From positions 286,854 through 350,853 of the forward strand of contig JBBIRK010000002.1 in NCBI GenBank assembly GCA_037441845.1: a stretch of 64,000 nucleotides of DNA, written 5' to 3'. The notes under the pieces were generated by a model, which saw only the letters and a program-made list of their open reading frames with translations, did no database searches and was not told where the DNA came from. This DNA comes from Candidatus Zixiibacteriota bacterium. Lineage in GTDB: Bacteria; Zixibacteria; MSB-5A5; UBA10806; 4484-95. Shown one piece after another: positions 13,172-50,668 of this stretch. The stretch's first letter is position 1, and the number at the start of each line of letters is the position of its first letter. The translations under genes were made by a program, and so were the position numbers.

Positions 13172-16100
13172 ATACCGAGCTCGCGGATGTGCCTTTTGCG
13201 TTGCTGGATTTTGTCGTTGGAATCGACCCAGCGGGCCTGGAGACCGCCGGTGATTTTGGCGGAGAAGCGATAAGATGCTTTGGGTTCGACGCTGGTTTCC
13301 ACACGATCGGATTCGACCGTTTTCAGGGCATTTTGAATCGACCAATTTTTATTGAATCGTTTGTTATAGTCGAGCGAAAGAGTCAATTGGCTTTCGAATT
13401 TCAGTTTGCCGAATATCGGGATATTGATTCCCCGTGGAGCGGTGAGCGAATACCCGAGGGATATTCTTATGGTGCGATCCTGCGAATAGCTGGTACGTTG
13501 ATTGATCCCCTCGCTGCGAAGGTTCTCCGATTTTCTCTTGTTGAAGTCGTAGCGGGCGGTGATACGAACTTCCTTGGGGAGAGTGGCATTGACCGCCAAC
13601 AGCGGCGTATAGGAATCGGCGACGTTGCGGCTGTATTTCTGGTCGGTATCGGCATGACCGGATTTATCGATTTTACGGGCGTAATTCGACTGCATGGTGG
13701 CGGTTTTGGCGAATTTTTTGAACAGAGGGAACTTTTCGACGCCCGAGATATTGACATCGATTCTCGGGAAATCGAGCGAGGTGTTTTTGACCGGGTCGGT
13801 GGTGGTTCGGGTTATGCCGACCCGGAATTTATAGGAAACTCCGATATCGACACCGGTTAAGGGAGCCAGTCCCGATCCGATCGAATAATCCTGGTTGTAG
13901 ATTTTTTGTTCGCGCGTTCCCAGGCCGATTACGGTGTTTTTGGGAACGCCCGGGTCATCGGCGAAACCGAGCGTATACTTCCAATCAGGTCTTCTATAGA
14001 GGCCGGATTGGTTCATTTTTTTATCGAAAGTGTAGCCCAAAGTCAGCGGTTTTATGGAGCGGATGGTGTTCAGGGCCGGTTTGAAAATTTTGAGTGGATT
14101 GGGCAATTTGAACGGTTTGCCGGGCTTTTTCTTTTCGGGACTGAATTCTTCGGCCTCTTCCTGCTCGCCCTGCTCTTTGTCGTTTTTCTCGCCCGGCGCG
14201 GCTTTGGGCGCAGCTGGGGCTTTGCCCGCACCACGCTTTTTCAGGCCGAGAATGTCGAAAATGTCGAGGCTCAAGTCGCCCCGCAATGTGGCCCCCACTT
14301 GAGAAGTTTTCGTAGTGTCGATACTGCGGGCGAAATCGGAATTGTCGGAGTAATTGGAATTGTACTGGAATCTGGGCGCAATCTTGCTGGTAAGCCGCGG
14401 CGAAAAGGAGACATCGAAACGTTGGCTGAAGGTTCTTTCGCGGCCGAGTTTGATGTCGCGTGGATCGTAGGCGAATTTGAGGGTGGCCGGATCGCTTATA
14501 TCGCGATTGCTGGTCATGGAGAAGCTGGTTTTCAGACTGCTGAACAAATCGAAACCGTAATTTTGCGTAAGCGCGAGGTCACGCACATAGGAGGAGGTTC
14601 GGATTCCCCGCTGGTTGACGGAAAAACTTCGGGTGCTGTTGACCGTGCCGTCGAATTTCAAAGTGGTCGGCAGAAAAGACAACTGCGCCGAATGGATACC
14701 CGAGGGCATAAAGAGATATTTGGTCCAGTAAAAAGGTTTTATGGTCGGGCGCGACCGGGGAGCAAGATCGTAAGAGCCGGTGGCGTTGTAAGTGGTAGTG
14801 CGGCTCAAGGGCGTGGTGGGATTCAGGCTGGATTGTTTTCCATAGGTGCCGCCGATGGTGAATCTGTTCAGGGTCCAGGCCCAGAGCCAATTGTTGGTAT
14901 TGCGGCGGAATTGCTCTCTGGCGGAAACCGACCACGAGCGGCTCTCCGATTTATAAAATTCCCGCAGGTCTGCCGGGAGAATAATATCCGAGCTGGGCAT
15001 TAGGCGCGGCAGCTGGCGGCTTTGCTGCCAGTTGTAAGTTATGGGCAATTTCAATTGCCATGACGGCGGGGCGATTTTATCGACATTGATGGTGGCGCTG
15101 ACCGATTGAGTTGTCGAAAGCGAACCGCCCGGCTTTTTGTCGAGCAATCTGACATAATCGGCGCCCTGGCGGTTGTAGTTGGCGTTGATATTCACGAAAT
15201 CAGCCAGGCCGACCGTGATACCGAGCCTTCCGGCGAAATCGGAATTGCGTCGGACGCCGGTGACGCGCAATTCATCGCACCAGACTTCGCCCGATACGGT
15301 CTGCGTATCCGCGACCAGACTGTCGTTGTAAACCCCGATTACGAAGCAGCGGATGCTCGAAAGGCTCGGATTTCCTTTTACCAGATAGGGCCCTTCCTGA
15401 TAGGCGATCGAATCGGGATGGTCGGCCGGACGCCGCGTTTTGAGAGCGGTCAATTCGGCGAAATCGATATCGACATGGTTGCCGTCAGCCCAGCCATCGG
15501 ACAACACCGTTTGATATTCGTAGTAATTGTTGCGGGAAGTGTCCACTCCCATCCGGAAAAAGAATTTCAGACGTCCGCCATCCGCGGAGTTATCGCCGTG
15601 TACGAACATTTTCATGCTCGAATAAAGGGTATAGTCCTCGGGCTGATAAAGATACCAGTAGGCGCGCACGCTTTGGCCGGGGCTCAGATTTTCGTAGCGT
15701 AGGACCAGGGATTGTTCCTTTTCGACGACGCCCGTTTCGCGATTGGATTGGGCGATTACTCCAGGCGGCGAGGTATAGCCGATATTTTCCTGAGTGTTCT
15801 TGACGGTAACCTCGAACGTTATGTTCGATTCTTCCGGACGCAGGGGAGCTTTGCGCCATTTGTTGCCGACTAGTTGTATCGAGGCGAGTTTGAGCAGATA
15901 CTGCTGCGATGCTCCCGAAATCCACAATCTGACGAATTTGATCTGCGAGAAATCACTCAGATTGGCGTTGCCGACCGAGGTGAACGCGGTGCTGTCCTGC
16001 AGAGGAATACGCAGCAATTTCCAGCCGGTTCGGGTGGAATCGGCGATTACGGTGTCGGGTTCCAAGAGGTTCACCGTATAGGAGAAGTAGGAATTCACCA

Positions 16101-19100
16101 GATCGGTGTAGGTATTGTTGTTGATATCCTCGGTGTCGAAACGATTGAGCCGATCGGGGTCGTTGCGGTTCCCCTCGGTGCCGTTGATACGGGAAAAATC
16201 GTTGCGTTCGGCGTTGGTGCCGGTTTTATACGACCAGTCGTCGCCGTTGGGATCGGGGTTGGCGGCCTGATCGAAACCGGGTTCCTGCGGGTTGGGCAAT
16301 CCATCGAGCCCGACGTCTTCGTTTTGTTCGAAAATGCCGTTGCGATTGAAGTCTTCGGTAAAGGGAACGGACGAACCGTCGCCGTCGAGATCCTCGCTGA
16401 TCTTGCCTATATCGATATGGAATAGAGGATGGTCGAGGCCGTCGTAAGTGGTATCGGGTTGATACCAGATCTCGATGAACTGGGTGAGCGATTGATCGTT
16501 CATTCCGGAGAAGAGCGGGCGCATAATGCCGGACCAGGCGGCTTGGGGATTGAGAATGGTGTCGGAATTGGGGCTGTATCTGAGAATCAAGACGTCGGTG
16601 CGATTGTCCTGGTCGCGCACCGAGCGATCGGGCCAGATATCGGTGAGCAGATAAGGAGTGTATGGGTTATACCACCACAATTTGCGTTTGGCGGCCAGAT
16701 TCATGCCGACCGGCGGCGAAGCCGTGGTCCAAATGCCACGGCGGGTCATCAGATCGGTATAGTCGCGGGAGCCCTCGAAATCGTCGATATAGGCGTCGTT
16801 ACGAAGATTGGGATTGGGAAAGCTTTGGGCGACTTCGCCGGAGATATCGATTCGGGAAGCGGTTTCGGTTTCGATGAAGGGCAGGAAATCGACCGCCCGA
16901 GTGAGAACCTTCGGCGCGAAGCCGAATATGAAGTTGGAGTCCCAGATCATGGAGCTGCGCGGTTCGCGACCTACCCGCGGGCGATATTCTCTGGCTGATT
17001 CCTTGCGATACATCCCGGCCCAGGACAACCAGGATTTGTCGTTGATATTGTATTTGGCGGAAAGGCCGAAAAATGATTTTTTCTCGGCGAGGAAAAACGG
17101 CGCATATTCGAAATCGATGCTAACGTTGTTGGTGGGATTAAGGGCTTCCTGGTTTATGAATGTAATCTGGCCGAGATCGTAATTTATGCTGTAATCGACG
17201 CCCCGTTGCAGGGTTTGACCGTTGCCCATGCGCACCACCTCGGAGTTTTCGATGATATTGGTGCGGCCGAGGCTGAACGTGGTCGATCTTTTGGACGATT
17301 TCACGTAAATGTAATAGGTTTGGTTATTGGCGCGGCTGGAGTTGTCATAGGGCAAATCGTAAATCAAGGGATTGCGCGTGTTGAGGACGGGCGAATCGAA
17401 GGGACGCGCCATAGGGAAAATCAAGTGTCCGCGGCCGGCATCGATAACGGTGCTGACGAAATCGAACTGGCAGTCCGGCGTGCGGGCGCGGGTCGAGTTG
17501 TTTAGGCTGTCGAGGCCGAGCAACGTGATATAGCAAATCTGATTTTGATCGGTGGTGTCGGTGTTAAGGTCGCCATGGCCCTTATATATCTGCAATTCGA
17601 ACCCGGCTTCGGTGAGGTCTCTTCCTCTGAGGTCATAGACGTTGCGCCATTCGAGATCCCAAGTCGAGAAGGACGAATCCGGGTTGATTGCCTTGATAAG
17701 TTTGAGCACCAACGTATCGCCGCGCAGGTTCCCCTCTCGCAGTGTATCGTAAGGCGCGTTTTTGCGGACATATTCGATATAGGCGGCAAGAAAGTCGCCG
17801 GTTTGGTCGCTGATAGGCTGATGCAGGGTGATGAACCAACCCGCCCGATTGAGATCGAAGTCGTTGTCGTTGAGCCGCAGCATATGGCTCTGCACAAATT
17901 CGCTTCGGCTTTGTTCCTGCTGGGTCTCGTAGTAAAGGGTATCGTTGCCGCCGGTTTCGTCCGGGTTCGGGCCGTAATGAGGATCGACGCAGGCTTTGCC
18001 GTAGGCGTCATGCTGAGTCGGCTGGGGACCGCCTTTGCGATAAAGTACCACGCGCAAGAGAGAATCGGTGGCGGGATTGAATTCGTTCGGGCGTCCCAGC
18101 CAGAAATAGACGTTATGCAGGTAGGCGTAATCATAGATGGTATCTTGTGAGCCCTGGGCACCGGCTTGAAAAGTCGCTTTTTCGGACGCTCCTTTTTCCT
18201 GGGAGGTTATCATCGTCAATTCCGTATTACCCACTTTGGCGGTGGCTTTGATGCCGAACAATCCCTGGACGTTTTGGGAGAAACCGATCAACTGCGCGTT
18301 CGGCAGCGACAGGTTGGTATTTCCGGCCTCGACCGTCTGCAGTATTTCGTCTTCCCCGCCCTTATAGCGCAGTTTAAGCGTGTTGGCCAACTCCTGATCG
18401 CGATTGGAGTCCTGATCGACCTCGATGCTCAGCTTGGAGCCTATGTCGCCCTTGATTTTAAAACGCGAGGTCTGCTCCATGTGCAGAGAGGGGAATTTCG
18501 ATTGTTTGAAGGTACCGGTATTGACGAGATTATCTTCCCATTCTGATCGCCCGGAGAAAGCGATTCGTCGGGAGCCGGTGACGGTGATGCGCGGGCCGCC
18601 TTCGCCGATAATGGAGCGGACCGATTTGGGAACATTGCCGATATTTATCGGGATCTGGATCCCCTCCGCTGCCTTGGGCTTGCTTTGCGTGCCGCTGAAA
18701 CCGGCCATTTCAGCGGCCCATTGTTTGCGCAGATAATTTTCGGAAGAACTTCTGACGTAACTGTCGAAATCGACGGCGATCGGATTATAAACGGCGAATT
18801 TGCCGAAACTGCGGGTGAGACGGACATAATCGATAGAACCGGTGACATCGACCCGCCATTTCAATTTTATCAGGTCGAACTTCAGGATATAGCAATCATC
18901 TTCGATCAGGGACAACCCGCCCGGAAAATTCCGAAGCAACGGCGGAGGAGCGTATGGATTATTATATTTCAGCCTGACGACGAATTCATTATCGGCCGCA
19001 AATGCCGATACGCACCACGTCGTCAGCGCAAGTAAGAATCCCGCAAGCGAGAAGAGCAAATTGGTTCGTTTCAGAGACAAACGAGCTCCACTTAAAATCA

Positions 19101-19101
19101 A
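13150..19101 (-). CDS. sprA: T9SS translocon / gliding-motility protein SprA (Sov)
   Basis: 1983 aa secreted protein with SprA N-terminal family pattern (TLKLRYKGGEDEILQTVEAGNTNLSLP) and beta-rich repeats throughout. Confidence 0.8.
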   Translation of the reverse strand: MILSGARLSLKRTNLLFSLAGFLLALTTWCVSAFAADNEFVVRLKYNNPYAPPPLLRNFPGGLSLIEDDCYILKFDLIKLKWRVDVTGSIDYVRLTRSFGKFAVYNPIAVDFDSYVRSSSENYLRKQWAAEMAGFSGTQSKPKAAEGIQIPINIGNVPKSVRSIIGEGGPRITVTGSRRIAFSGRSEWEDNLVNTGTFKQSKFPSLHMEQTSRFKIKGDIGSKLSIEVDQDSNRDQELANTLKLRYKGGEDEILQTVEAGNTNLSLPNAQLIGFSQNVQGLFGIKATAKVGNTELTMITSQEKGASEKATFQAGAQGSQDTIYDYAYLHNVYFWLGRPNEFNPATDSLLRVVLYRKGGPQPTQHDAYGKACVDPHYGPNPDETGGNDTLYYETQQEQSRSEFVQSHMLRLNDNDFDLNRAGWFITLHQPISDQTGDFLAAYIEYVRKNAPYDTLREGNLRGDTLVLKLIKAINPDSSFSTWDLEWRNVYDLRGRDLTEAGFELQIYKGHGDLNTDTTDQNQICYITLLGLDSLNNSTRARTPDCQFDFVSTVIDAGRGHLIFPMARPFDSPVLNTRNPLIYDLPYDNSSRANNQTYYIYVKSSKRSTTFSLGRTNIIENSEVVRMGNGQTLQRGVDYSINYDLGQITFINQEALNPTNNVSIDFEYAPFFLAEKKSFFGLSAKYNINDKSWLSWAGMYRKESAREYRPRVGREPRSSMIWDSNFIFGFAPKVLTRAVDFLPFIETETASRIDISGEVAQSFPNPNLRNDAYIDDFEGSRDYTDLMTRRGIWTTASPPVGMNLAAKRKLWWYNPYTPYLLTDIWPDRSVRDQDNRTDVLILRYSPNSDTILNPQAAWSGIMRPLFSGMNDQSLTQFIEIWYQPDTTYDGLDHPLFHIDIGKISEDLDGDGSSVPFTEDFNRNGIFEQNEDVGLDGLPNPQEPGFDQAANPDPNGDDWSYKTGTNAERNDFSRINGTEGNRNDPDRLNRFDTEDINNNTYTDLVNSYFSYTVNLLEPDTVIADSTRTGWKLLRIPLQDSTAFTSVGNANLSDFSQIKFVRLWISGASQQYLLKLASIQLVGNKWRKAPLRPEESNITFEVTVKNTQENIGYTSPPGVIAQSNRETGVVEKEQSLVLRYENLSPGQSVRAYWYLYQPEDYTLYSSMKMFVHGDNSADGGRLKFFFRMGVDTSRNNYYEYQTVLSDGWADGNHVDIDFAELTALKTRRPADHPDSIAYQEGPYLVKGNPSLSSIRCFVIGVYNDSLVADTQTVSGEVWCDELRVTGVRRNSDFAGRLGITVGLADFVNINANYNRQGADYVRLLDKKPGGSLSTTQSVSATINVDKIAPPSWQLKLPITYNWQQSRQLPRLMPSSDIILPADLREFYKSESRSWSVSAREQFRRNTNNWLWAWTLNRFTIGGTYGKQSSLNPTTPLSRTTTYNATGSYDLAPRSRPTIKPFYWTKYLFMPSGIHSAQLSFLPTTLKFDGTVNSTRSFSVNQRGIRTSSYVRDLALTQNYGFDLFSSLKTSFSMTSNRDISDPATLKFAYDPRDIKLGRERTFSQRFDVSFSPRLTSKIAPRFQYNSNYSDNSDFARSIDTTKTSQVGATLRGDLSLDIFDILGLKKRGAGKAPAAPKAAPGEKNDKEQGEQEEAEEFSPEKKKPGKPFKLPNPLKIFKPALNTIRSIKPLTLGYTFDKKMNQSGLYRRPDWKYTLGFADDPGVPKNTVIGLGTREQKIYNQDYSIGSGLAPLTGVDIGVSYKFRVGITRTTTDPVKNTSLDFPRIDVNISGVEKFPLFKKFAKTATMQSNYARKIDKSGHADTDQKYSRNVADSYTPLLAVNATLPKEVRITARYDFNKRKSENLRSEGINQRTSYSQDRTIRISLGYSLTAPRGINIPIFGKLKFESQLTLSLDYNKRFNKNWSIQNALKTVESDRVETSVEPKASYRFSAKITGGLQARWVDSNDKIQQRKRHIRELGIWTELRF

Positions 19102-28003: not shown

Positions 28004-29986
28004 TCAAGAACGTAAATTTTTCTTGACCCATTCCTCGAGACTTCCGGCCAGAATCAGTTCCTGAGCCGCTTCGCCGATCGGACCGATCGGGTATTTTTTC
28101 CCGGAGAATTCGACGGTCGAATGTCGGAAATCGATGGTCGCCATGACGCCGGTGCGCAGGGTCGGCTTGGCGGAACCGAATCTGGTTTTCAGTTCATCGA
28201 TCAGTTCGGGGGCGTCGATGGTGAGAAAGCCGTTGTTGAGCGCGTTGCGCTTATAGGTCTCGGAAAAGGAACCGGCCAGAACCAGGGCGATCCCCTTATA
28301 TTTGAGCGCGGTGGCGGCTTGTTCGCGGGAGCTGCCGGTGCCGAAATTGTAGCCTGAGGCCAGCAGATCGCCCTTGCGGGCGATCGCTACGAATTGCGGA
28401 TCGTAATTTTCCATGACCACGCCCGCCTGCTGCTCCGGGGTGAAATCGTCGATGTAGGTATATTTCCCGGGATAGATACCGTCGGTGTTCAGATTATCTT
28501 GATTGCAAAAAACGATTTCTCCGGTGAGAGTCTCGGGAAACCCCTCAACTATTCTGACTGCGGCGGTCGTCTGTGCCTTGCGGGCGGCGATTGAAGATTT
28601 GCCCACAGGTTTCAAGTTCCCCGGAAGGCGGATATTTTCAGGCATTTCGATATAACCGGCGACTGCGGAGGCGGCTACCACAGCGGGCGAAGCGAGATAT
28701 GCTTTCGAGTCCGGGGAACCCATGCGTCCCTTGAAATTTCGATTGGTAGCCGAGATGCCGACTTCACCGGCCTGCAATAAGCCCTTGCCGAGACCGATGC
28801 AGGGGCCGCAACCCGGCGGTAATGGAATAGCACCGGCATCCAGCAGATTCCGCCAGTCGCCGCGTTTTTCGGCCTCTTCTTGGATTTCGCTCGAGGCTGC
28901 GGAAATGTAGAACTCCACGCCCGGGGCGACTTTTTTGCCGGCTACCACGCGGGCAGCCTCGGCGATATCCTCCACCCGGCTGTTGACGCAGGAGACAAGG
29001 TAGGCTTTTTGAATCGCTATCCTCTGTTTACTAATCTGGGAAACGGGCGAGATTACTTTCACCGTATTGGGACCGCTGACATGCGGCTCGACGGATTCGA
29101 GATCGAAGACGATTTCCCGGGCATAAAAAGCATCGGGGTCAGCCGTCGGGATCTCTTTCTTGAGTTTTTCGATGCGCTCGTGGTTAAGCCGGGGATGCTT
29201 TCCGTTACCTTCGGAATCGGACGGCACGCCGGCCAGACCGCGCCTGGCGATAAAGTCAGCCCTGCGTTTGAGCCAGTCGAGAGTGATTTCGTCGATCGGA
29301 AAGATGGCTGCCAGCGCCCCCCACTCGGTGGTCATGTTGGCGATCGTGAGCCGCTGATCTATCGAAAGTCCGGCGATGCCGCCGCCGCAAAATTCGAGCG
29401 CGTGATTCAGAACCTCGTCTTTATTGAAGGTTCCGCAGAGAGCGATGATGACATCTTTGCCGGTGACGCCGGGGCGAAGTCTGCCGGTGAATTCGATTCT
29501 GGCCACCGGCGGAACCTGCCACCAGGTTCGTGTGGTAGCCCAAATGGCGGCTGCGTCCGTGCGCACGATCGGGGTGCCGAGGCAACCGAGTCCGCCGTAC
29601 ATATTGGAGTGGCTGTCGGAGGCGACAACCAGTGTGCCGGGCCAGGCGTAACCCTCCTCGCACATTATTTGATGACCTATCCCCCTGCCGGCGGGGTAGA
29701 AATCGACCCCCATGTTTTCGGCGAATTCGGCGATTTTATTGTATTTGGCCAGATTCGCCTCGCTCGTGTCCTGGACATTATGATCAAGGGTGACAACCAC
29801 TTGTCGAGGATCGGCGATTTTGGTGGCTCCGATGCTCTTGAATTTGGGGATAACCGCGCCGGTGTTGTCGTGAGTCATTACGTAGGCGGGGCGGATCGAC
29901 AGATAGTCGCCGGCTTTCACCTGGTGATCGGCCGCAAGTCCTACGGCGAACTTCTGGGCTATTTTTTCAACGACATTTTGTCCCAT
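28004..29986 (-). CDS. aconitase-family hydro-lyase, fused large + swivel domains (homoaconitase / IPM-dehydratase-like)
   Basis: Canonical aconitase motifs GHQ, SDSHS, SCVNSR and PGCGPCIG; C-terminal LeuD-like swivel domain. Confidence 0.85.
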   Translation of the reverse strand: MGQNVVEKIAQKFAVGLAADHQVKAGDYLSIRPAYVMTHDNTGAVIPKFKSIGATKIADPRQVVVTLDHNVQDTSEANLAKYNKIAEFAENMGVDFYPAGRGIGHQIMCEEGYAWPGTLVVASDSHSNMYGGLGCLGTPIVRTDAAAIWATTRTWWQVPPVARIEFTGRLRPGVTGKDVIIALCGTFNKDEVLNHALEFCGGGIAGLSIDQRLTIANMTTEWGALAAIFPIDEITLDWLKRRADFIARRGLAGVPSDSEGNGKHPRLNHERIEKLKKEIPTADPDAFYAREIVFDLESVEPHVSGPNTVKVISPVSQISKQRIAIQKAYLVSCVNSRVEDIAEAARVVAGKKVAPGVEFYISAASSEIQEEAEKRGDWRNLLDAGAIPLPPGCGPCIGLGKGLLQAGEVGISATNRNFKGRMGSPDSKAYLASPAVVAASAVAGYIEMPENIRLPGNLKPVGKSSIAARKAQTTAAVRIVEGFPETLTGEIVFCNQDNLNTDGIYPGKYTYIDDFTPEQQAGVVMENYDPQFVAIARKGDLLASGYNFGTGSSREQAATALKYKGIALVLAGSFSETYKRNALNNGFLTIDAPELIDELKTRFGSAKPTLRTGVMATIDFRHSTVEFSGKKYPIGPIGEAAQELILAGSLEEWVKKNLRS

Positions 29987-38791: not shown

Positions 38792-39430
38792 GTGCTGGAA
38801 GTCAACTATCTGCTTTTGACTTTAAGGACTGATAGACAAGTTAAGTTGGGAACCTCTCCCCTGTCGGTTTTTATATCTTCGGCCTATCAAAAAGAATTCG
38901 GTCAGATTTCGCATACGCTTTCCGGCGGAAGCTACCCGTTGTTGCAATATAAAGTGATCAGGGGGTCTCCTTTGATTGTGGCGATCAACGAGGGGCGGGA
39001 TTTATTGTGGAAAATCTACGATGATCTCGACAGCATCGATTGCAAAGGCGAATTCGTCATACTCGAAAAGCGCATAATCGAGAAAAAGGCGATGCTGGGT
39101 CCCACGGAGAGACGATTGAAATACCGCTTTTTGACTCCCTGGCTTACGATAACCGAGGCGGAATTGGCCAAGCAAGGCGGAACGGCATCGTTGGAGGAGG
39201 CGTTATTGCCGGTAATCGAAAGCAATCTTCGGGGGCTGTCGCGCAATTTCCACATTCCACTGGAGCAGCCGATAAGCGCGGGTTTCCATCTGCGGAGCGA
39301 GCATATCGTCCAGAAAGAATCGGGAATTATGGGGTTCCTCGGGACTTTTTACATCAACTACGAGATTCCGCAGTTTCTGGGTTTGGGCCGCGGCGTAAGC
39401 CGGGGATTCGGAACAGTCAAGCAAAGTTAA
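38792..39430 (+). CDS. Cas6-like RAMP endoribonuclease homolog (solo, no array)
   Basis: 212 aa; C-terminal glycine-rich loop GLGRGVSRGFG matches the Cas6 GhGxxxxxGhG signature; beta-strand N-terminus with His41. Assignment is motif-based only. Confidence 0.4.
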   Translation: MLEVNYLLLTLRTDRQVKLGTSPLSVFISSAYQKEFGQISHTLSGGSYPLLQYKVIRGSPLIVAINEGRDLLWKIYDDLDSIDCKGEFVILEKRIIEKKAMLGPTERRLKYRFLTPWLTITEAELAKQGGTASLEEALLPVIESNLRGLSRNFHIPLEQPISAGFHLRSEHIVQKESGIMGFLGTFYINYEIPQFLGLGRGVSRGFGTVKQS

Positions 39431-41399: not shown

Positions 41400-41867
41400 T
41401 TACTTACCGAGTAAAGTCCGGGTGTAATTGAGCAGTCCGCCGGATTGGATTATTTTGCCGATCGGCTCCGGGATTGATTCGAAGCGGATAGCTCCTCCTC
41501 GACGCTGGATTTCATTTTTAACGAAATCGAGTTCGATCTCTTCGTGGTTTTTTAATCCGGCCGAGGCGATGTCACATTCCACCGGCGTTATCCCCACGGA
41601 GACGAGGATTCTATAAAACAGCGGAGGAATCCGTGAGGCGACGAGGGCAAACACATTGTTTTCTTTAAGGGCTGCGGCCATTGCCTCTCCCCTGTCCAGG
41701 TACAGGGCGAATGGCAAAAAGTCGTGATAGTCGTCGATAACCAAGGCAATCGGAGGTTGCGGCCCACTTCTTTCCCTGATAATTGATTGGAAGAGATCTT
41801 GGGGCTCGCCGGCAAGCGAGAAATCTTTGTCCGCGAAAAGAACGGACGCTTTCAAATTCCGAATCAA
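41400..41867 (-). CDS. LeuD-like aconitase swivel-domain protein, active-site motif degenerate
   Basis: Colinear with LeuD (VFALVASRIPPLFYRILVSVGITPVEC; C-terminal GGLLNYTR) but GCGSSREHA is replaced by IDDYHDFLP. Confidence 0.6.
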   Translation of the reverse strand: MIRNLKASVLFADKDFSLAGEPQDLFQSIIRERSGPQPPIALVIDDYHDFLPFALYLDRGEAMAAALKENNVFALVASRIPPLFYRILVSVGITPVECDIASAGLKNHEEIELDFVKNEIQRRGGAIRFESIPEPIGKIIQSGGLLNYTRTLLGK

Positions 41868-43450
41868 AGCAAGTATTTCCTCGGGTCGGTGACGGCGCCA
41901 TCGACCGCCGAGGCTGCGGCGGTGGCGGCCGAAGTAACGTATATTTCATTTACGCTGTCGCCGCAGAAGGAGGTCGCGACCACCCGTTCGGCGTCACCGG
42001 TCGGCCACTCGCTACGACTGCAGCCGGGACTGGATACCACGCAGCCCGATTCGATAAATGACCGGATAAATCCCTTTTCGACCGCCTCGAGATAGGTTTT
42101 TCGAGATCCCGGAACGATTATGACCTGAACGTCCCGGCTGATATGTCTTCCCCGCAAAATCGCGGCGGCCAGAGCAAAATCATCGAGGGAACCACCGTGG
42201 CAGCCGCCGATGATTACGGTATCTATTTTTCGCCCGGCGAATTCCTCGGCTGCTTTGATTTTGGGTTTCGAACTTTCCCTCCCCTTTTCCCGACTCGCCA
42301 CCAAGGGCGTCAAATAGCCTATATTGATTTCCATTTCGTCGGCGTATCGCGCATCCGGGTCGGCATTCAATGGGGTTAATTTTTGCCGGTAATACTTGCG
42401 CAGGTTTTTCCAGGAGATTTCGTCTAAATGCACACTGACAGCCGCCGCGGCCGGTTTGAAAACGGGACCGGCCAGTGTCAATCTGGAGAATAAGGACAAG
42501 GTCGAGACGACATCTCCGAATATTTCGATCGCTTTTCCGGCGACGACATGATGGAACAGATCATGTTCGAGTTTTAGGGCGATATCGGCGGCGGAAAGGC
42601 CACGCGGGATTTTGCCGGTGAGCACGACTTTGACGGTCGGTGGGATTTTATACCAAATTCTTCCAATGGCCCATATGGAGGCCAATTCGAGAGCGGCGGC
42701 CGGCAAACCCACAGCTCCGATTCCGCCGCAGGAGGATACATAGGCGTTCGAGCCGAATACCAGGTCGCCCGGTTTGGCCAGCCCCTGTTCGCAGACAATT
42801 TGGTGAGGGACCCCCGAGCCGCAATCGAAAAAATTTCCGATGCCCTGTTTGCGAGCCCAATCGCGCAGTGATTTGGGCGTGACATGATCATCGACGGCAA
42901 TGGGGGAAATTCGCTGATCGAGGACGGCTACGATTTTATTGTTATCCCAGATTCTGGCCGCGCCGATTTTCTTGAAATGGCCGAGCACGGTCGTGATTTC
43001 GGCGCCGCAGGTAACCAGATCGGGCGTTAATTCGACGGTATCCCCCTCTTCGACGGATTTCAGACCGGCTTTGCGGGCGATAATTTTTTGGATGAGGGTT
43101 TCTTTGCGGGAATTGCGTGATCGCCGCGGGATATCCAACAGCGGCAATTCAAGTTGCCTGAATTTCAATTGTTGGGGTTTGGATTTGATGTTGTATTTGA
43201 TGCGCCATTGCCGGAACGCCGGGCCGGTGATTTCCAGTTCGGCGCCTGCCAAGCGGTCGTTGCCGTATCGTTCCCAGAGGTCGAGGATGGTTTCCCGGGA
43301 ATATTTCGGCTGGCTGAAGGCGGGAATTCCTTTTTTGCTGCGCCAGTAGGCGACCAGCCTACCGGGGACGCCGAAGAACTCGCCGATTTTCCTGTCAGTG
43401 CGGTATTTTTTTTGAAGCTCTAAAAGCTCGTGCTTTTTGGGTATTTTCAC
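41864..43450 (-). CDS. LeuC/aconitase-large-subunit-like protein with N-terminal basic HTH-like extension; catalytic residues lost
   Basis: GSGVPHQIVCEQGLAKPGDLVFGSNAYV (aligns to GxGIxHQ...GADSHT with D/S/H lost); IIGGCHGG in place of IGSCTN; PGCSRS in place of PGCGPC; first ~110 aa resemble a basic helix-turn-helix (IGEFFGVPGRLVAYWRSKKGIP). Confidence 0.6.
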   Translation of the reverse strand: MKIPKKHELLELQKKYRTDRKIGEFFGVPGRLVAYWRSKKGIPAFSQPKYSRETILDLWERYGNDRLAGAELEITGPAFRQWRIKYNIKSKPQQLKFRQLELPLLDIPRRSRNSRKETLIQKIIARKAGLKSVEEGDTVELTPDLVTCGAEITTVLGHFKKIGAARIWDNNKIVAVLDQRISPIAVDDHVTPKSLRDWARKQGIGNFFDCGSGVPHQIVCEQGLAKPGDLVFGSNAYVSSCGGIGAVGLPAAALELASIWAIGRIWYKIPPTVKVVLTGKIPRGLSAADIALKLEHDLFHHVVAGKAIEIFGDVVSTLSLFSRLTLAGPVFKPAAAAVSVHLDEISWKNLRKYYRQKLTPLNADPDARYADEMEINIGYLTPLVASREKGRESSKPKIKAAEEFAGRKIDTVIIGGCHGGSLDDFALAAAILRGRHISRDVQVIIVPGSRKTYLEAVEKGFIRSFIESGCVVSSPGCSRSEWPTGDAERVVATSFCGDSVNEIYVTSAATAAASAVDGAVTDPRKYLL

Positions 43451-43938
43451 TTTTTCAAAATTTTGACAAAGTGTTTTTTCAATGAATCGTAAATTTCCTC
43501 AAGCGCGAACGATTGAACTTTCGTTTTGCCGATTACGGGCATGAAATTGGTGTCTCCAAGGAAACGCGGAACGACATGAATGTGAAGATGCTCCTTTATG
43601 CTCGAACCGGCGACCTCGCCGATATTGATGCCGATATTGAGGCCATCGGCGGGCATGGCGGCGAAAAGCAATTTATTTGCCAGGATCATCAATTCGAACA
43701 TTTCGGCCTGTTCTTCTTTGGTCAGGCTTTCGAGCTTGGCTTTATGCGCATTCGGAGCGATCATAAGATGGCCGCTGTTATAAGGGTATTTATTGAGGAT
43801 GATGAACGAATGTCGTCCCCGGTAAAGAATGAGATTTTTGCGATCATCTTTTTGCCTGAGCCTGCTGCAGAAGATGCATTTTTTTTCGGGTTTGCCCTTG
43901 ATATATACAGCGCGCCACGGCGCCCAAAGCTCGGCCAT
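43447..43938 (-). CDS. HIT family protein (histidine triad nucleotide hydrolase/transferase)
   Basis: CIFC N-terminus, HLHIHVVPR histidine triad. Confidence 0.85.
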   Translation of the reverse strand: MAELWAPWRAVYIKGKPEKKCIFCSRLRQKDDRKNLILYRGRHSFIILNKYPYNSGHLMIAPNAHKAKLESLTKEEQAEMFELMILANKLLFAAMPADGLNIGINIGEVAGSSIKEHLHIHVVPRFLGDTNFMPVIGKTKVQSFALEEIYDSLKKHFVKILKK

Positions 43939-44092
43939 GCGATAAGAATAACGACCGGATTCGCAAAATCAAGAAAATAATTTCAGCGGATACAATCCGC
44001 ATTTTTGGAATTTTCGTTGAAATCGAGCGCCTAAGAGAGGTTTTGAAGGACCGGGGTATTTCGGATCAGCGATCGGGGGAATGTGATAGTGT

Positions 44093-46195
44093 TCAGGCGC
44101 CGAGCTCGACGAGATGGTCGGCGTAGCTGTCGAGCCGGTTGCCGGAGGTAAGAAGCAATATCTGCCTTCCCGTCGAGAGCTGTTTCAGGATTTTCATGGT
44201 TTTGTCGAGACGCTGGGGATCGAGACATTCGAACGGCTCATCGAGGATAAGCGGAGCTTTGGCCTGATTGGCCATGATTTCGGTGAGCGCCAGCCTGGCG
44301 GTCAAATAGACTTGATCGGCGGTGGCGCGGGAAAGTTCGCTTTCAGGATCGACGTAATCGTTTTTTTGTTTGGAGAAGACCTTGAATTTAAGCGACGCCC
44401 TGTCGAAACGAACACTGTCGTAGCGGCCGTCGGTCATCGCCGCCAGCAATTCGGATGTGCGGTTTTCCAATAATTCGAGGGTCGAAATCATGATGTTTTG
44501 GCGGGCGATTTCAACGCATTCCTTGGTGAGTCCCAAGATGGCGAGTTCCTCGACATATTTCATTTTGCGCAGGGTCAATTCTTCTTTGCGTTCGAGATAG
44601 CTTGCCAGAAGCTCCGCGCCGCCTTCGGCGGTTTCGAGTTTGCGACGTAAGACGGCGATTTCGTTCTCGAGAGCCGATTTTTGTTCGGAGGTTTGGTCGA
44701 CCACATGCTTAAGTCGGTTGATTTCAGCCTGATCGAATTGCTTCCCTTGGGAGATTTTTATCGCCTCTTTGATCTCGCCCTCTCTGAGTCGCAATTGGCG
44801 GCATCTGTTTTCGAGCGTTTCCAGATCGGATTCGCCGAGCGCCGATTTTTGCAGTTCTTTTTCGTGACGCAATTGATTTTCGAGCTCATCCCGTTTCCAG
44901 GCGATCTGGCGGATTTGTTCGGCGCTGTTTATGTGATATTTGGACAGCAAAGCCTTCAGCTCGGCGGTTTGGTCATCGTATTCCTTTTTGCTTTCAGCCA
45001 GCCGATTCGATTTTTGTGTCAACTGGCCTTGTAGAAAAGACCTCAGCTGGAAGAATCTCGAAAATGAAAAGACGGTTATCATGAGAAAGGCAACGGCGGC
45101 TCCGCCGAAATAAAGGTGGCGGCCGGTAAAATGGAGCAGATAATCGGCCACGGCGAAACCCGATGCGCCGAGTGCGCAGATCGCCCAGAGCAATAGCGGG
45201 CCGATTTTTCGATTTCGTTGAAGCTCATGTTCGGCCTGGACCGCCTCTTTTTCCAGTTCTCTCAGTTTCGGCCGTAGATATTTGAGATTGGATTCGATTT
45301 CTTCGATGCGTTCGCGGTCTTCCGGGGAGACTCTGGTCAGTTCGGACAATTGTTTTTCGATTTCGGAGATTTTGCCGGTGACGGATTTGGCCATTTCGAG
45401 TTTGTTGGATATTTCGTCGAGCTCGCGTCCCACCTCGACCAGTTCGCTCAGTGATTTTTCCTGCTCGGTCATCTGATCGAGCGTCTGCTTTTTGTTGGTG
45501 TAGTCCTCGATTATATTGGCATAGGCCGTTTCCACCTGAGCCAGCGAGTTGCGATAGGTTTTCAGATTGGCGATGTCGCGCTTGAGGTTTTCGATATTGT
45601 AATCGATTTCGCTCTGGCTTTTTTCGAGGCGTTTCAGAAATCCCGAATCCGCGCCGGTGATGTTCTCTATGCGATCGTCTATTTTTACCTGAACGGAAGA
45701 GGCCGCCAGATCCTGTTGGCCGCCGGTCACCAGTGATTCCAGCTTATCGCGGATCGCCTCGAGTGAATCGTCTATGCGGGCTATTTCCCCTTGTTTTACG
45801 CAAGCGGTAGCCCGGAACAGTTCGGCCGATGGGAAGCCCACGGCGCCGGAAATCATTTCGAAAATTTTATGCGAATCGTCGATGGTCAAGTTGAGGCCGT
45901 CGCTTTTGAGGACGGAAGCGCCGGTGCCCAGGTTTTTTTCTACGATGGCGGAAAATCCGGCGGTCGATAATTCGGCTTTCAGCAAAGGCACATCGGAACC
46001 GGACCAGTTTTTCAGAGCCGCCGACTCGTTATCGATTGCTCCGGGTTTGCCATAGAGCAAAGTGGAGATAGCGGCGACGATCGTGCTCTTGCCGGCCTCA
46101 TTGGGCCCTTTTATGACATTGATTCCATCGCCCAGATCGCAGTGGAATCGTTTGAACCGTCCGAAATTCTCGATTGTAAGTTCGTTTATTTTCAT
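44093..46195 (-). CDS. SbcC/Rad50-like AAA ATPase (YhaN-like) with long coiled coil and two central TM helices
   Basis: Walker A GPNEAGKST; coiled coil; hydrophobic pair LLLWAICALGASGFAVADYLL / AAVAFLMITVFSF; Walker B LILDEP; signature LSRAT rather than LSGGQ; H-loop His absent. Confidence 0.75.
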   Translation of the reverse strand: MKINELTIENFGRFKRFHCDLGDGINVIKGPNEAGKSTIVAAISTLLYGKPGAIDNESAALKNWSGSDVPLLKAELSTAGFSAIVEKNLGTGASVLKSDGLNLTIDDSHKIFEMISGAVGFPSAELFRATACVKQGEIARIDDSLEAIRDKLESLVTGGQQDLAASSVQVKIDDRIENITGADSGFLKRLEKSQSEIDYNIENLKRDIANLKTYRNSLAQVETAYANIIEDYTNKKQTLDQMTEQEKSLSELVEVGRELDEISNKLEMAKSVTGKISEIEKQLSELTRVSPEDRERIEEIESNLKYLRPKLRELEKEAVQAEHELQRNRKIGPLLLWAICALGASGFAVADYLLHFTGRHLYFGGAAVAFLMITVFSFSRFFQLRSFLQGQLTQKSNRLAESKKEYDDQTAELKALLSKYHINSAEQIRQIAWKRDELENQLRHEKELQKSALGESDLETLENRCRQLRLREGEIKEAIKISQGKQFDQAEINRLKHVVDQTSEQKSALENEIAVLRRKLETAEGGAELLASYLERKEELTLRKMKYVEELAILGLTKECVEIARQNIMISTLELLENRTSELLAAMTDGRYDSVRFDRASLKFKVFSKQKNDYVDPESELSRATADQVYLTARLALTEIMANQAKAPLILDEPFECLDPQRLDKTMKILKQLSTGRQILLLTSGNRLDSYADHLVELGA

Positions 46196-46196
46196 G

Positions 46197-47315
46197 TCAC
46201 CAGATTTTTTGCCCGGCCAAAAGCGAGTAGCCGATTTTAATTGACTTTTCGAGACGCATTTTTTCCTGCGCGTTGGCTTGTTTGAGCCTGGCGGTCATGA
46301 AACGGAGATATTGACCAAGCAGGGTTTTTTCGGCAACTTTCACTTCACTGACGTTATCCGGGAAGACGATCATATCGTCGATGATATCGAGGTAAAGAAA
46401 ATCGTTTTCGAGGAGGCGATAGACGGTCTCCGGTTCGAGTTCAGCCTCGAACAGCGCCAGACCTTTAAGTTTCAGACGAAGCAAGACGTCGGAACCGGCT
46501 TGAGCTTTGAGTTTGGCATATAGGTCGTTGTTATTGGTAATATCCTTGGCGTCATAAACGAGATTTTTCCACTCGAGGCGGCCGATCGGAACCTGATTTT
46601 GGCGGATTGACCTCGGGGCGACTATTTCGGTCACCACGATGAATCCGGCGCGGTCATCCTCGAAAGAGATCCGCTCGGGCGAACCGCAATGGGCGATGCG
46701 GATGTCCGGCAGAGCGTAATCGTGGAAAGAGGTCTTCCCGCCCAGGGCGATATAATCGAAGCGGCCGAGCAAAGCCCTGAACTGTTCGGTGAGCTCGTTC
46801 AAGAAATCGGCTTTGGGCAAGCAACCGAGCAGTAGATTGAATCCGGTATCCGGCAACGGGCTGACGCTTCGCACCAATTCAAGAAAATCGTGTTCGGTCG
46901 TAAGCGGCGCGCCATAGACCATGCAATTTTTTTCGGGCAGTGCAATGGAAGGTCGCTTTTTATCGAGCAAAATATGGATATTACCTGGCGGCTGCGGCCC
47001 CGAGAAAGTCCGCCAAAAGGCGTTATCATTGGCGCCGTCGCGTATGCCCGGAAGTATGACGACCGGCATCGGCGCCAGCGATGCCAATCCGCCGGCGGCG
47101 AATCTTTGCAAATTATTGGAGACATCCACGGTGTCGAACAGGTTGCCGGCTATCAAGAGCAGATCGGCTTTCTCGTGGCGGGCATATTCGATAATGTTGC
47201 AAAAGGCGTTTTTCAAGGCGGCCCTTATTTTGTCGCCGGCCAATTTCAGCCCGACAAAAGAGGCCCCCAGCCGGATATCGGAAGTGTGAACGATCTTCAT
47301 AGGAAACGCTCGCAC
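46197..47315 (-). CDS. SbcD/Mre11-like metallophosphoesterase homolog with substituted metal ligands (YhaO-like, predicted inactive)
   Basis: HTSDIRLG (versus HTSDxHLG), AGNLFD (versus GDxFD), LPGIRD (versus GNHD). Alternative start at MKIV (47300). Confidence 0.7.
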   Translation of the reverse strand: MRAFPMKIVHTSDIRLGASFVGLKLAGDKIRAALKNAFCNIIEYARHEKADLLLIAGNLFDTVDVSNNLQRFAAGGLASLAPMPVVILPGIRDGANDNAFWRTFSGPQPPGNIHILLDKKRPSIALPEKNCMVYGAPLTTEHDFLELVRSVSPLPDTGFNLLLGCLPKADFLNELTEQFRALLGRFDYIALGGKTSFHDYALPDIRIAHCGSPERISFEDDRAGFIVVTEIVAPRSIRQNQVPIGRLEWKNLVYDAKDITNNNDLYAKLKAQAGSDVLLRLKLKGLALFEAELEPETVYRLLENDFLYLDIIDDMIVFPDNVSEVKVAEKTLLGQYLRFMTARLKQANAQEKMRLEKSIKIGYSLLAGQKIW

Positions 47316-47340: not shown

Positions 47341-49029
47341 TTATTTATTGCGGGCGGTCAGTTTTTTGGCGACCAGAGGGGGAGGAATGGTCCCCTCCGC
47401 AAGCAAAGCATCATGGAAACGGCCGAGAGAAAAGGCGGATCCGAGGATCTTTTTCTGATTTTCAAGCATCGCCAGAATTTGGAGTTTGCCCGTCAGATAG
47501 CTGGAGGCGACAGTGGGATTGGCGCAATACCTGCGGATTTCGGCGACGAAATAGTCATTATTTTCGCCCAGCAGGTTATTCATCAGAGCCAAAGCCGAAT
47601 CAGTCGAGAGACTGCCGTCGTGCAGGCCGCAATCGACGATTATTCGGACGGCGCGGAATCTTATGCCTCCCCATACGCCAAGCCAGCGGCGTTCGAGATC
47701 ATCGGTCCCGAACAACCCCTGCTCGGTGGCCATCTGCTCGCAATAAAGCGCCCACCCCTCGGAAAACATGGTGCTGTGGGTAATCCGTCGAATCAACGAG
47801 GGATGCTTTCTGGCGATATCGAGCTGCAAGTGATGACCCGGAAAGGCTTCGTGGACGACCGAACCTCGGAAAGTCCGATTGACGATCATGGAGTAATATC
47901 GTTGTTTTTGCAAAGAATCGAGTTGAGGTATCGGCCTGACATAGAATCTGCCGGTGGGGTCGCTGGAAAATACGGGCGCCGGCTCGTAGGCGATGCCGCG
48001 ATGGGTCGCCTGCATAAAGGCGGGCATTTGAACCGGCAGACAGGGACCTATATCCGGCGGAATGGTTACGATTCGGTTTTCTCGAAGAAATTCGGCGGTT
48101 CGATCGATTTCCCATTGATAATAACGCATGATGTCATCGACATCGAACGTATCCGGGCGGGTCAGGGTGACAGCCGGCGCAGGAGGTAATCTATCGACGA
48201 TGAGGCGCAGAGAATCCATGGTTCGGTTGCTGAGATCATACCAATACCAACCGATTTTTTTCAGGGAATCGCTGTCGATATCGAGCAGGTGGATTTGTCT
48301 GAGCATGTAGTTGAAATTGTTTTTGCCGACGGCGAAAGTCCCCGGCGCATCATTGAGTTCGATCTTGCAGGTAAGGGAGTAATTTTTGATATTGACTTTC
48401 GCCAGGCCGCAAATTTGCGCGATCCGAATTGAGCTGTCGGGAAGGATTTTCCCGAGGTAGTTTTCGATTTCCAGCAACAACGGTTCGGAATTCTCTGCGG
48501 TTTCGATGGCGGTTTCGTAGAATATCTGCGCCTGATTGAACTGGATTCCCCAGGATAAATTGAGGAAATCGGGGATTTTCCGCAACCGTGAAAGCAGAGC
48601 ATAGGCGCGCTGGGAATCGGGAATCGCCTGATCCAGCATCAGGTAATAGAGAGAATTGAGGGCATCATCGATATAGAGGGCGGGCGAGATTTCGTGCAGG
48701 GGGAAACGGACGAGCCAGAAATTATCCGCGGCGAGGGCGGATTTGAAGACGAGGTAATCGATATATTGGTCGAGCGAGAGTTTCAATGTGTCGATTTTTC
48801 TGAGCCGGCTTTCTATGACCGAGAGCTGATTGCGATAGTCGTAAACGGCCTGAATCGAGTAATCGGGCAACAGGCTGTCGTAATCGTGGATACCGAGGCT
48901 GGTTGACCAAACGGGATTGAAGCGACTCTTGGCGGCAAGATAATCGGCGGCGAGCTGGTTCAGGTCATCGGCCCAAGCGGATGCCGCGGTGATAAAAACG
49001 ACGGCTGCGAAAACCAAAATTTTATTCAT
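47341..49029 (-). CDS. DUF885 family protein (HExxPGHH metallopeptidase-like)
   Basis: Signal peptide; VVHEAFPGHHLQ motif. Confidence 0.8.
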   Translation of the reverse strand: MNKILVFAAVVFITAASAWADDLNQLAADYLAAKSRFNPVWSTSLGIHDYDSLLPDYSIQAVYDYRNQLSVIESRLRKIDTLKLSLDQYIDYLVFKSALAADNFWLVRFPLHEISPALYIDDALNSLYYLMLDQAIPDSQRAYALLSRLRKIPDFLNLSWGIQFNQAQIFYETAIETAENSEPLLLEIENYLGKILPDSSIRIAQICGLAKVNIKNYSLTCKIELNDAPGTFAVGKNNFNYMLRQIHLLDIDSDSLKKIGWYWYDLSNRTMDSLRLIVDRLPPAPAVTLTRPDTFDVDDIMRYYQWEIDRTAEFLRENRIVTIPPDIGPCLPVQMPAFMQATHRGIAYEPAPVFSSDPTGRFYVRPIPQLDSLQKQRYYSMIVNRTFRGSVVHEAFPGHHLQLDIARKHPSLIRRITHSTMFSEGWALYCEQMATEQGLFGTDDLERRWLGVWGGIRFRAVRIIVDCGLHDGSLSTDSALALMNNLLGENNDYFVAEIRRYCANPTVASSYLTGKLQILAMLENQKKILGSAFSLGRFHDALLAEGTIPPPLVAKKLTARNK

Positions 49030-50482: not shown

Positions 50483-50521
50483 GTGCGGGGAATGCGAAAG
50501 TTCTTTCGAGCATAAAAAAAG

Positions 50522-50614
50522 CGGAAGGGACAGGAATCGAACCTGCCAAAACCGGGATCACCGGTTTCCAACGATTTTGAAGACCGCGGGGGCCACCAGA
50601 CCCCATCCGCTTCC
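50522..50614 (-). tRNA. selC: tRNA-Sec (selC), anticodon UCA
   Basis: Reverse complement reads GGAAGCGGATGGGGTCTGGTGGCCCCCGCGGTCTTCAAAATCGTTGGAAACCGGTGATCCCGGTTTTGGCAGGTTCGATTCCTGTCCCTTCCG. Colinear with E. coli selC from memory: GGAAG..GGTG.., CTTCAAA loop giving anticodon TCA, long variable arm, GGCAGGTTCGAnTCCTGT, ..CTTCCG. 93 nt. Confidence 0.8.
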
Positions 50615-50668
50615 AAGGGGAAATTAGGCGTTCGATGGATTACAGGCAAGCCAAAAAGAAAAGGAGAA

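Follow-up and report, generated by a model that had tools for sequence, protein, structure and literature searches.

A LeuC-like protein with a predicted helix-turn-helix head and a degenerate active site, encoded next to a HIT protein in Zixibacteria

Why would a bacterium keep a relative of LeuC, the large subunit of 3-isopropylmalate dehydratase, in which most of the catalytic residues are replaced, and why is it encoded directly behind a HIT protein? This question is raised by a locus of a Candidatus Zixiibacteriota bacterium (GenBank assembly GCA_037441845.1, contig JBBIRK010000002.1, positions 286,854 to 350,853), whose 64,000 nucleotides are called the window here. On the minus strand of the window, the open reading frame (ORF) listing and the sequence itself reveal three consecutive genes, which encode a HIT protein, a LeuC-like large protein and a LeuD-like small protein. 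The original prediction, made from the letters of the DNA, had described them as a coupled operon whose LeuC/LeuD-like pair had lost its active sites and might have become a ligand sensor or a nucleic-acid binder, loosely like IRP1. Here, the answer that we favor, with moderate confidence, is that the large protein descends from a DNA-binding "trigger enzyme", has lost its catalysis and persists in a regulatory or scaffolding role, forming a pair with the HIT protein.

The relationship of the large protein to LeuC is supported on the level of sequence as well as structure. It is recognized by PF00330 with an E-value of 4.5e-44, and its residues 118–524 align end to end with positions 2–415 of the NF001614 model. 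Furthermore, the AlphaFold2 (AF2) model, with a predicted local distance difference test score (pLDDT) of 87.8, matches LeuC from Methanocaldococcus jannaschii (4KP1) in Foldseek with a template modeling (TM) score of 0.85 and an E-value of 5e-41. Nevertheless, the protein stays under every curated LeuC/HacA cutoff, reaching 287 of the 385 bits demanded by NF001614, 266 of 410 for TIGR02086 and 261 of 386 for TIGR01343.

The individual residues were mapped onto LeuC (4KP1, 4NQY) and HacA (4KP2) of M. jannaschii with HMMER, and 13 key positions were scored, namely the HD pair, the His of HQ, the DSH triad, the three cluster cysteines, the Asn of CTN as well as the N, R and R of NRNFxGR. In the window protein the GADSHT motif of LeuC reads GSNAYV and the (M/T)HD motif reads CGAE, with GA in place of the HD pair. 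The Asn position of CTN is occupied by G, the third cluster cysteine is replaced by S480 (within PGCSRS), and the arginine loop NRNFxGR is deleted. Thus, ten of the 13 residues are lost and only H216 (the His of HQ), C417 and C477 are retained. Judged from these substitutions, the LeuC-like body of the window protein is predicted to be catalytically dead. The catalytic and cluster substitutions named originally were all recovered in the residue-level alignments to 4KP1 and 4KP2, and the family models and alignments agree with the colinearity of the large protein with LeuC, the homology of the small protein to LeuD and the loss of both active sites. A misregistered alignment can be rejected as the source, since two solved LeuC/HacA structures gave concordant HMMER alignments and the registration holds.

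A second explanation of the unusual residues, that the protein is in truth an AcnX-type dehydratase, was considered and rejected. The window protein gave no PF04412 match at E-values up to 1, and the Foldseek matches to AcnX structures (E = 6e-12, TM score 0.4) are far weaker than that to LeuC, whose fold is much nearer. Matches to IRP1 and IRP2 are local and weak, with E-values of 1e-5 to 1e-6. Twelve kb from the LeuC-like gene, the window encodes a fused large and small subunit aconitase-family enzyme of 660 amino acids, which scores 868 bits with the homoaconitase model TIGR00139 (cutoff 530) and displays all catalytic and cluster motifs. With this intact homoaconitase at hand, the genome would not depend on the dead copy for such chemistry.

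Within the family, the invariant columns of the body are mostly glycines, prolines and fold residues common to LeuC. The position of the third cluster cysteine is a Ser in the window protein, a Cys in the relatives L001 and P0002, which share about 80% identity with it, and a Gly in P0004 (L and P numbers denote the loci and proteins of our comparison). This variation of former active-site positions among close relatives speaks against a catalytic site or ligand pocket that the family has newly come to share. The ligand sensor suggested originally, if it is to rely on a conserved pocket, is therefore unlikely for the family as a whole.

The large protein carries 117 additional basic residues at its N-terminus, with an isoelectric point (pI) of 10.4 and a net charge of about +15. 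This extension is real coding sequence, being conserved in more than 100 homologues and displaying a ratio of nonsynonymous to synonymous substitution rates (dN/dS) of 0.07 against L001. The AF2 model places six helices in its head, which form two helix-turn-helix (HTH) units of three helices each, spanning residues 6–16, 19–26 and 30–40 in the first unit and residues 52–62, 65–71 and 76–85 in the second. The pLDDT is about 84–93 over the helices and 73–80 in the loop between the units, and R, K, W and Y residues are invariant in the third helix of each unit. The linker that follows has a pI of 11.5 and is predicted to be disordered, with a pLDDT of 48–65 and low confidence from about residue 86. 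Nevertheless, its motif KPxQLKxxQLEL is conserved, and P92, L95, Q99, L100 and E101 do not vary among 24 sequences. The basic, HTH-like N-terminus that was noticed at the outset is hereby resolved into two predicted HTH units plus a conserved linker.

Searches of the head against Pfam (E-values up to 10) and PDB sequences gave no direct match. A profile of the head, compared with 1.84 billion representative proteins, returned the family itself and many unrelated tandem-array proteins, in which 3–10 units of about 45 amino acids follow the pattern LQKKYRTDxxIGExLGVxxxxVxxWRxKxxI and are assigned by Pfam to HTH_23, HTH_17 or HTH_28. Examples of such arrays are P0099, P0116, P0121, P0126–P0128, P0148 and P0151. 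The link between the head and HTH_23 is only transitive, via proteins recognized by the head profile as well as by HTH_23. The structural neighbors of the head are nearly all DNA-binding domains. On the basis of the model, the head most likely represents a bipartite, paired/Myb-like (homeodomain-like) DNA-binding domain. In the precomputed annotation of P0005 and P0012 a model termed PF28406.1 precedes PF00330, which may be a newer model of this head.

The protein belongs to a family of orthologs that spans the Zixibacteria. A word-index search returned 64 clusters of full-length homologues (523–538 amino acids, 43–80% identical), of which all named ones originate from Zixibacteria; the next matches are ordinary LeuC proteins and aconitases with at most 34% identity, which lack the head. 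Scanning one genome per species yielded 59 loci, located in metagenome-assembled genomes (MAGs) of Zixibacteria or in MAGs labeled "uncultured Ignavibacteria" or "bacterium" by their submitters. In a clade comprising L041–L057 the large protein is shortened to about 482 amino acids. Public records name the members "3-isopropylmalate dehydratase large subunit", "homoaconitase" or "hypothetical", and our literature searches found no description of this HTH-LeuC-like family.

The HIT gene is located directly upstream and on the same strand in all 59 loci. Both ORFs were callable in 54 of these, and in about 37 the two genes share an NTGA overlap; nearly all others are at most 11 nucleotides apart. 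In the window, the junction between HIT gene and large gene is a GTGA overlap of 4 nucleotides (AAG-TGA over GTG-AAA), and the junction between large and small gene is a TTGA overlap of the same length (CTT-TGA over TTG-ATT). Both overlaps can be read in the sequence. The proposed coupled unit of three genes stands, and the HIT pairing, for which gene-neighborhood conservation had been put forward as a check, holds throughout the family. This universal and tight coupling suggests a joint function of the HIT protein with the HTH-LeuC-like protein.

The LeuD-like gene was found by an iterated hidden Markov model (HMM) in only 12 of the 59 loci, so that a role as universal third member is ruled out and the assumption of a constant system part has to be given up. 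It overlaps the large gene by 4 nucleotides in eight cases, including the window. The same overlap in seven other loci and the conservation of residues 1–60 with L001 support the TTG start, which had been called as the first available start codon. In other clades the gene downstream of the large gene encodes an outer-membrane protein (OMP) beta-barrel, a DNA methylase, DinB or a metallophosphoesterase. The window small protein reaches 37.9 bits with TIGR02087 (cutoff 108.95), and only its residues 61–150 are aligned. Alignments to LeuD revealed LDRGEA at the position of the substrate loop GSSRE(H/Q)A, a retained C-terminal SGGLLNYTR and a strongly diverged N-terminal half, in agreement with the original description of a preserved GGL C-terminus and a lost loop. 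A word-index search with the small protein returned three proteins, which is explained by its fast divergence.

How the catalytic residues were lost can be followed within the family itself. Among 107 unique aligned sequences, all 13 key residues are kept in five (L014, L015, L016, L030 and L046) and none in twelve, and all grades between these extremes are populated. Regarding the cluster ligands, 45 sequences have all three cysteines, 13 have two, 25 have a single one and 24 lack them altogether. L014 from the intact clade clears the curated cutoffs with 592 (NF001614), 545 (TIGR02086) and 561 bits (TIGR01343), and a canonical LeuD (NFGCGSSREQA) is encoded near four of the five intact loci (L014, L016, L030 and L046), that of L014 scoring 206 bits with TIGR02087 (cutoff 109). 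At the other end, the clade with 0 of 13 residues keeps a body of about 360 residues, which is still recognizably of the aconitase family; the large protein of L049 reaches 58 bits with NF001614. The head of the intact clade is 65% identical to that of the window protein and a HIT gene is located upstream here as well, so the fusion predates the decay. A leucine operon context was not found in the neighborhoods of the intact clade. In L016 (3141–3875) and L046 (8067–8762) a ferredoxin-like protein of 231–244 amino acids with a CxxCxxCxxxCP motif, QueG-like by eye, is encoded between the intact HTH-LeuC and LeuD. Furthermore, a sub-clade (L008, L009, L012, L013 and P0030–P0045) displays Cys in place of the NRNF Asn while retaining the three cluster cysteines, with the string NNNHHQCNCCCG. 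Judged from these residues, it might possess a cluster site with four cysteines, although its active site is dead in other respects.

A neighbor-joining (NJ) tree calculated from head, linker and HIT only places the intact clade among degenerate groups, and L018 (8 of 13) and L007 (9 of 13) beside relatives with 1–4 of 13. Since catalytic sites do not re-evolve, this placement indicates that residues were lost separately in different lineages and, at least in part, in parallel. Across the loci, the head has a mean pairwise identity of 0.65 and is the best-conserved part of the large protein, followed by the linker with 0.43 and the body with 0.34; HIT reaches 0.52. In the comparison of the window with L001, at a dS of 0.7–1.3, dN/dS is lowest in the linker (0.04) and in HIT (0.05), followed by the head (0.07), the body (0.15) and the LeuD-like gene (0.24). 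With values below 0.25 in every part, no pseudogene is present here, and almost all loci are free of frameshifts and stops. The constraint on body and small subunit is relaxed in comparison to the head, yet it is maintained.

The HIT protein of the window is recognized by PF01230 with 53 bits (cutoff 21.5; E = 4.7e-14), and its catalytic motif HLHIHVVPR is intact. The motif HxHxHxVPR is present in 54 of 54 HIT genes tallied, which represent the eight commonest variants among about 59 aligned. The nearest solved structures are 6AF2 (E = 3e-29) and Rv2613c (3ANO, E = 2e-28), and NF052622 (ATP adenylyltransferase) scores 134 bits, under its equivalog cutoff of 290. By sequence, the protein is assigned to the diadenosine tetraphosphate (Ap4A) phosphorylase/ATP-adenylyltransferase branch. 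It resembles the Rv2613c-type HIT Ap4A phosphorylases in its full-length alignment, the LWAPWR N-terminus and the HxHxHxx motif, and differs from them in staying below the NCBIfam equivalog cutoff and in its lineage-specific, fixed pairing with the HTH-LeuC-like gene. A Pfam scan revealed no DNA-binding domain within the HIT protein itself. HIT proteins of this type are very common: more than 7,800 relatives were found at E < 1e-20. For an Asgard homologue (L063, 58% identity) the neighboring gene is unrelated to the HTH-LeuC-like gene; for another top match (P0355) the next gene encodes an aconitase-family protein of 541 amino acids and overlaps by 4 nucleotides.

Upstream of the HIT gene, most clades display a −10-like hexamer that ends 6–9 nucleotides from the ATG, and no Shine-Dalgarno sequence. 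Of 57 upstream regions, 19 contain the heptamer CTTGATT, in comparison to at most nine in shuffled sequences, and it always lies 34–42 nucleotides 5′ of the HIT ATG; in other clades TATATT or TATAAT is found 6–9 nucleotides before it. In the window, 6 nucleotides separate the end of the −10-like hexamer from the HIT ATG, so that the mRNA would be leaderless. Taken from sequence comparison, this suggests a promoter of the operon's own and a leaderless HIT transcript. A consensus promoter scan found no site upstream of the window HIT gene, and the candidate promoter given in Table 1 is derived from comparative conservation. The hairpin between the SbcC-like gene and the HIT gene probably terminates the upstream unit. 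In the clade with intact catalysis (L014, L016, L030, L040 and L046) the HIT gene is preceded by an AGGAG leader and starts with TTG.

Table 1. Coordinates of the operon, of the parts of the large protein and of other features of the window
Feature	Position	Strand	Remarks
HIT gene	43447–43938	−	163 aa, ATG start
LeuC-like large gene	41864–43450	−	528 aa, GTG start
LeuD-like small gene	41400–41867	−	155 aa, TTG start
Bipartite HTH head (large-protein residues 1–88)	43187–43450	−	predicted helices
Basic linker (residues 89–118)	43097–43186	−	predicted disordered, motif conserved
LeuC/HacA-type aconitase-superfamily body (residues 119–528)	41864–43096	−	homology, fold, lost catalytic residues
Candidate operon promoter	43945–43973	−	CTTGATT −35-like (43967–43973), 16-nt spacer, TATTCT −10-like (43945–43950)
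Palindromic hairpin GCGGAT-TGT-ATCCGC, SbcC-like/HIT intergenic	43986–44000		terminator-like flag; T-rich run after it on the minus strand
Fused homoaconitase-like gene	28004–29986	−	intact motifs
SbcC/Rad50-like and SbcD-like genes	44093–47315	−	700 aa and 372 aa
DUF885 gene	47341–49029		
Cas6/Cas6b-like gene	38792–39430	+	212 aa
Selenocysteine tRNA	50521–50615	−	anticodon TCA
Very large ORF	13150–19101	−	1983 aa

Taken together, the following course of events is proposed. The ancestor would have been the large subunit of a functional LeuC/HacA-type [4Fe-4S] dehydratase, a subunit that gained a bipartite, homeodomain-like HTH head and in this way became a DNA-binding trigger enzyme, a form that one present clade would still have. 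In other lineages the catalytic and cluster residues would have been lost piecemeal and independently, during which head, linker and the upstream HIT gene remained under strong purifying selection. The LeuC-like/LeuD-like pair of the window would then be a pseudoenzyme whose head most likely binds DNA, and the dead body may serve as a folded scaffold for oligomerization or partner binding, possibly of the HIT protein. The HIT protein and the large protein would be produced from a single leaderless transcript by coupled translation. Thus, a regulatory or scaffold role of the HTH-LeuC-like protein is the most likely one.

Several observations speak against this reading. No conserved operator was found upstream of HIT, where the enrichment of exact k-mers yielded clade-specific promoter-like hexamers only, and the palindrome TGATT-N3-7-AATCA of a few loci occurs at chance level (1 in the window in comparison to 0.71 expected). 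A dead body of 410 residues is kept without an evident reason. Conservation of the head exceeds what is usual for a specific transcription factor, and its partner could be another one, e.g., RNA polymerase or RNA. Finally, the NJ tree is midpoint-rooted and carries no support values.

Other explanations have to be weighed against the regulator or scaffold. The large protein may chiefly be a partner of HIT in a nucleotide or DNA-end module, tethering it to DNA or RNA in the manner of the aprataxin zinc finger, or being regulated or adenylylated by it, and acting together with the neighboring SbcCD-like nuclease instead of as a transcription factor. The invariable neighborhood of the HIT gene with its mostly coupled translation, a HIT protein that lacks a DNA-binding domain and a conserved disordered linker motif that resembles a docking peptide would all fit, and so would the genes for DUF885, SbcD-like and SbcC-like proteins that are often found 5′ of HIT (the latter two in about half of the loci, the window included). 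However, the HIT protein falls into the Ap4A-phosphorylase branch and not into that of aprataxin, its type is widespread and occurs outside the lineage without such a partner, as in the Asgard locus, the clade L019–L039 and the intact clade (clade A) lack SbcCD genes between those for DUF885 and HIT, and the hairpin and a putative separate promoter part SbcC from HIT. Such a module is therefore unlikely, but it deserves consideration. The protein might also still be an enzyme with altered chemistry at a remodeled site, built from two cysteines and a histidine or free of a cluster, the HTH head serving in autoregulation. The purifying selection on the body, its full length across the phylum and the presence of H216, C417 and C477 are compatible with this; the substrate-carboxylate-binding arginine loop, however, is deleted, the LeuD substrate loop is lost, the former active-site positions vary between close relatives and no alternative conserved catalytic constellation is found in the invariant columns, which makes a surviving activity improbable.

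The idea of an IRP1-like riboregulator, in which the cluster-free cleft between LeuC-like and LeuD-like protein binds an RNA hairpin, would have parallels in known RNA-binding members of the aconitase superfamily, namely IRP1, IRP2 and the apo-aconitases of Escherichia coli and Bacillus subtilis. The weak local IRP matches and the many members without cluster ligands would be in line with it. On the contrary, the LeuD-like partner needed to form the cleft is present in the minority of loci stated above, the residues of the cleft vary from member to member, conservation and basic charge are found in the HTH head and not in the cleft, and neither a conserved RNA structure nor an Rfam match was found near the operon. 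Since the added head is the simplest candidate for binding nucleic acids, a mode like that of IRP1 is very improbable; the analogy drawn in the original prediction finds no support here, and the bipartite HTH as the candidate for nucleic-acid binding points to DNA. A last possibility is that body and LeuD-like gene are functionless relics heading for deletion. They are less constrained than the head and one clade has shortened its large protein, but the dN/dS of both lies well under 1, frameshifts and stops are absent in almost all loci and even the clade devoid of all 13 residues has kept its aconitase-family body. A decaying relic is thus extremely improbable. The reading as an anti-phage defense system was rejected, since no PADLOC match was obtained: the LeuC-like and LeuD-like proteins gave none with the defense models, and the HIT protein matches the generic ThsC HIT model only.

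A comparison with known systems places the regulator or scaffold among its relatives. With LeuCD-HacAB of M. jannaschii (MJ0499/MJ1003; 4KP1, 4KP2) the large protein shares the three-domain fold and the end-to-end colinearity at 29% identity, clade-A members exceed the curated thresholds, and the small subunit (compare 3VBA, 2PKP and 1V7L) is likewise a separate, adjacent and translationally coupled gene. In contrast to LeuCD-HacAB, the family possesses the bipartite HTH head plus linker and a HIT gene always in 5′ position, and the window pair, besides its lost key residues and LeuD GSSRE loop, is located outside a leucine or lysine operon. AcnX (PF04412; 7CNQ, 7CNR) has a distant fold of the same superfamily and often two subunits, but relatives of the window protein stay below the threshold of PF04412 (25 in comparison to 31.5 bits) and the structural match is far weaker than that of LeuC. 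In the IRPs and apo-aconitases, too, regulation survives or replaces catalysis on an aconitase-superfamily fold, and IRP2 is catalytically dead. However, IRPs are four-domain monomers of about 900 amino acids with an RNA-binding cleft and without an added HTH, whereas in the window family the small subunit is a separate protein missing from most loci, the candidate binder is an appended domain and the cleft residues are unconserved.

Trigger enzymes provide a further comparison. PutA, BirA and NadR are trigger enzymes or enzyme-linked regulators that possess a DNA-binding domain. For BzdR, an HTH domain is combined with a shikimate-kinase-like domain that is no longer a pathway enzyme (PMC3602430). 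The architecture of DNA-binding domain, linker and enzyme fold as well as the step from enzyme to regulator are shared with the family described here. That an enzyme fold together with a DNA-binding domain can turn into a regulator is therefore already known; new are the case from the aconitase/LeuC superfamily, the tandem HTH head, the obligate HIT partner and the full series from intact to dead within one orthologous group, whose extremes coexist in one phylum.

Some further features of the window may be mentioned. The SbcC/Rad50-like and SbcD-like proteins are short, divergent and far under the curated cutoffs; together with the DUF885 gene they make up a block 5′ of HIT whose synteny recurs in about half of the loci. 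An orphan Cas6/Cas6b-like gene lies between kdsA and hutU; it matches Cas6b_N and Cas6b_C of Pfam as well as the Cas6 model of PADLOC (E = 2.5e-37) and is found in L001 with the same synteny and 86% identity. No CRISPR array was detected in the 64-kb window, and no cas gene among the annotated neighbors, the rest of the window being unscanned. The selenocysteine tRNA was identified by Rfam (RF01852, 66.6 bits) and ARAGORN.

One may ask whether the HIT protein and the HTH-LeuC-like protein constitute a signaling device specific to the Zixibacteria. Here, the body would sense a nucleotide handled by the HIT protein, e.g., a dinucleoside polyphosphate, or, in members with three or four cysteines, the Fe-S status, and the bipartite head would relay this to a DNA target common to the phylum. 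We regard this as decidedly unlikely; if true, it would represent a global regulator that responds to an alarmone and derives from a fossil enzyme of amino-acid biosynthesis.

Independent of this, the family provides a natural time series of how an enzyme with two jobs loses its catalysis and keeps the second job, with stages that can be tested biochemically. The HIT and HTH-LeuC-like genes represent a lineage-defining pair of an uncultured phylum. Furthermore, the labels dehydratase and homoaconitase are wrong for most members and would inflate the calls of leucine and lysine pathways in metabolic reconstructions of the Zixibacteria.

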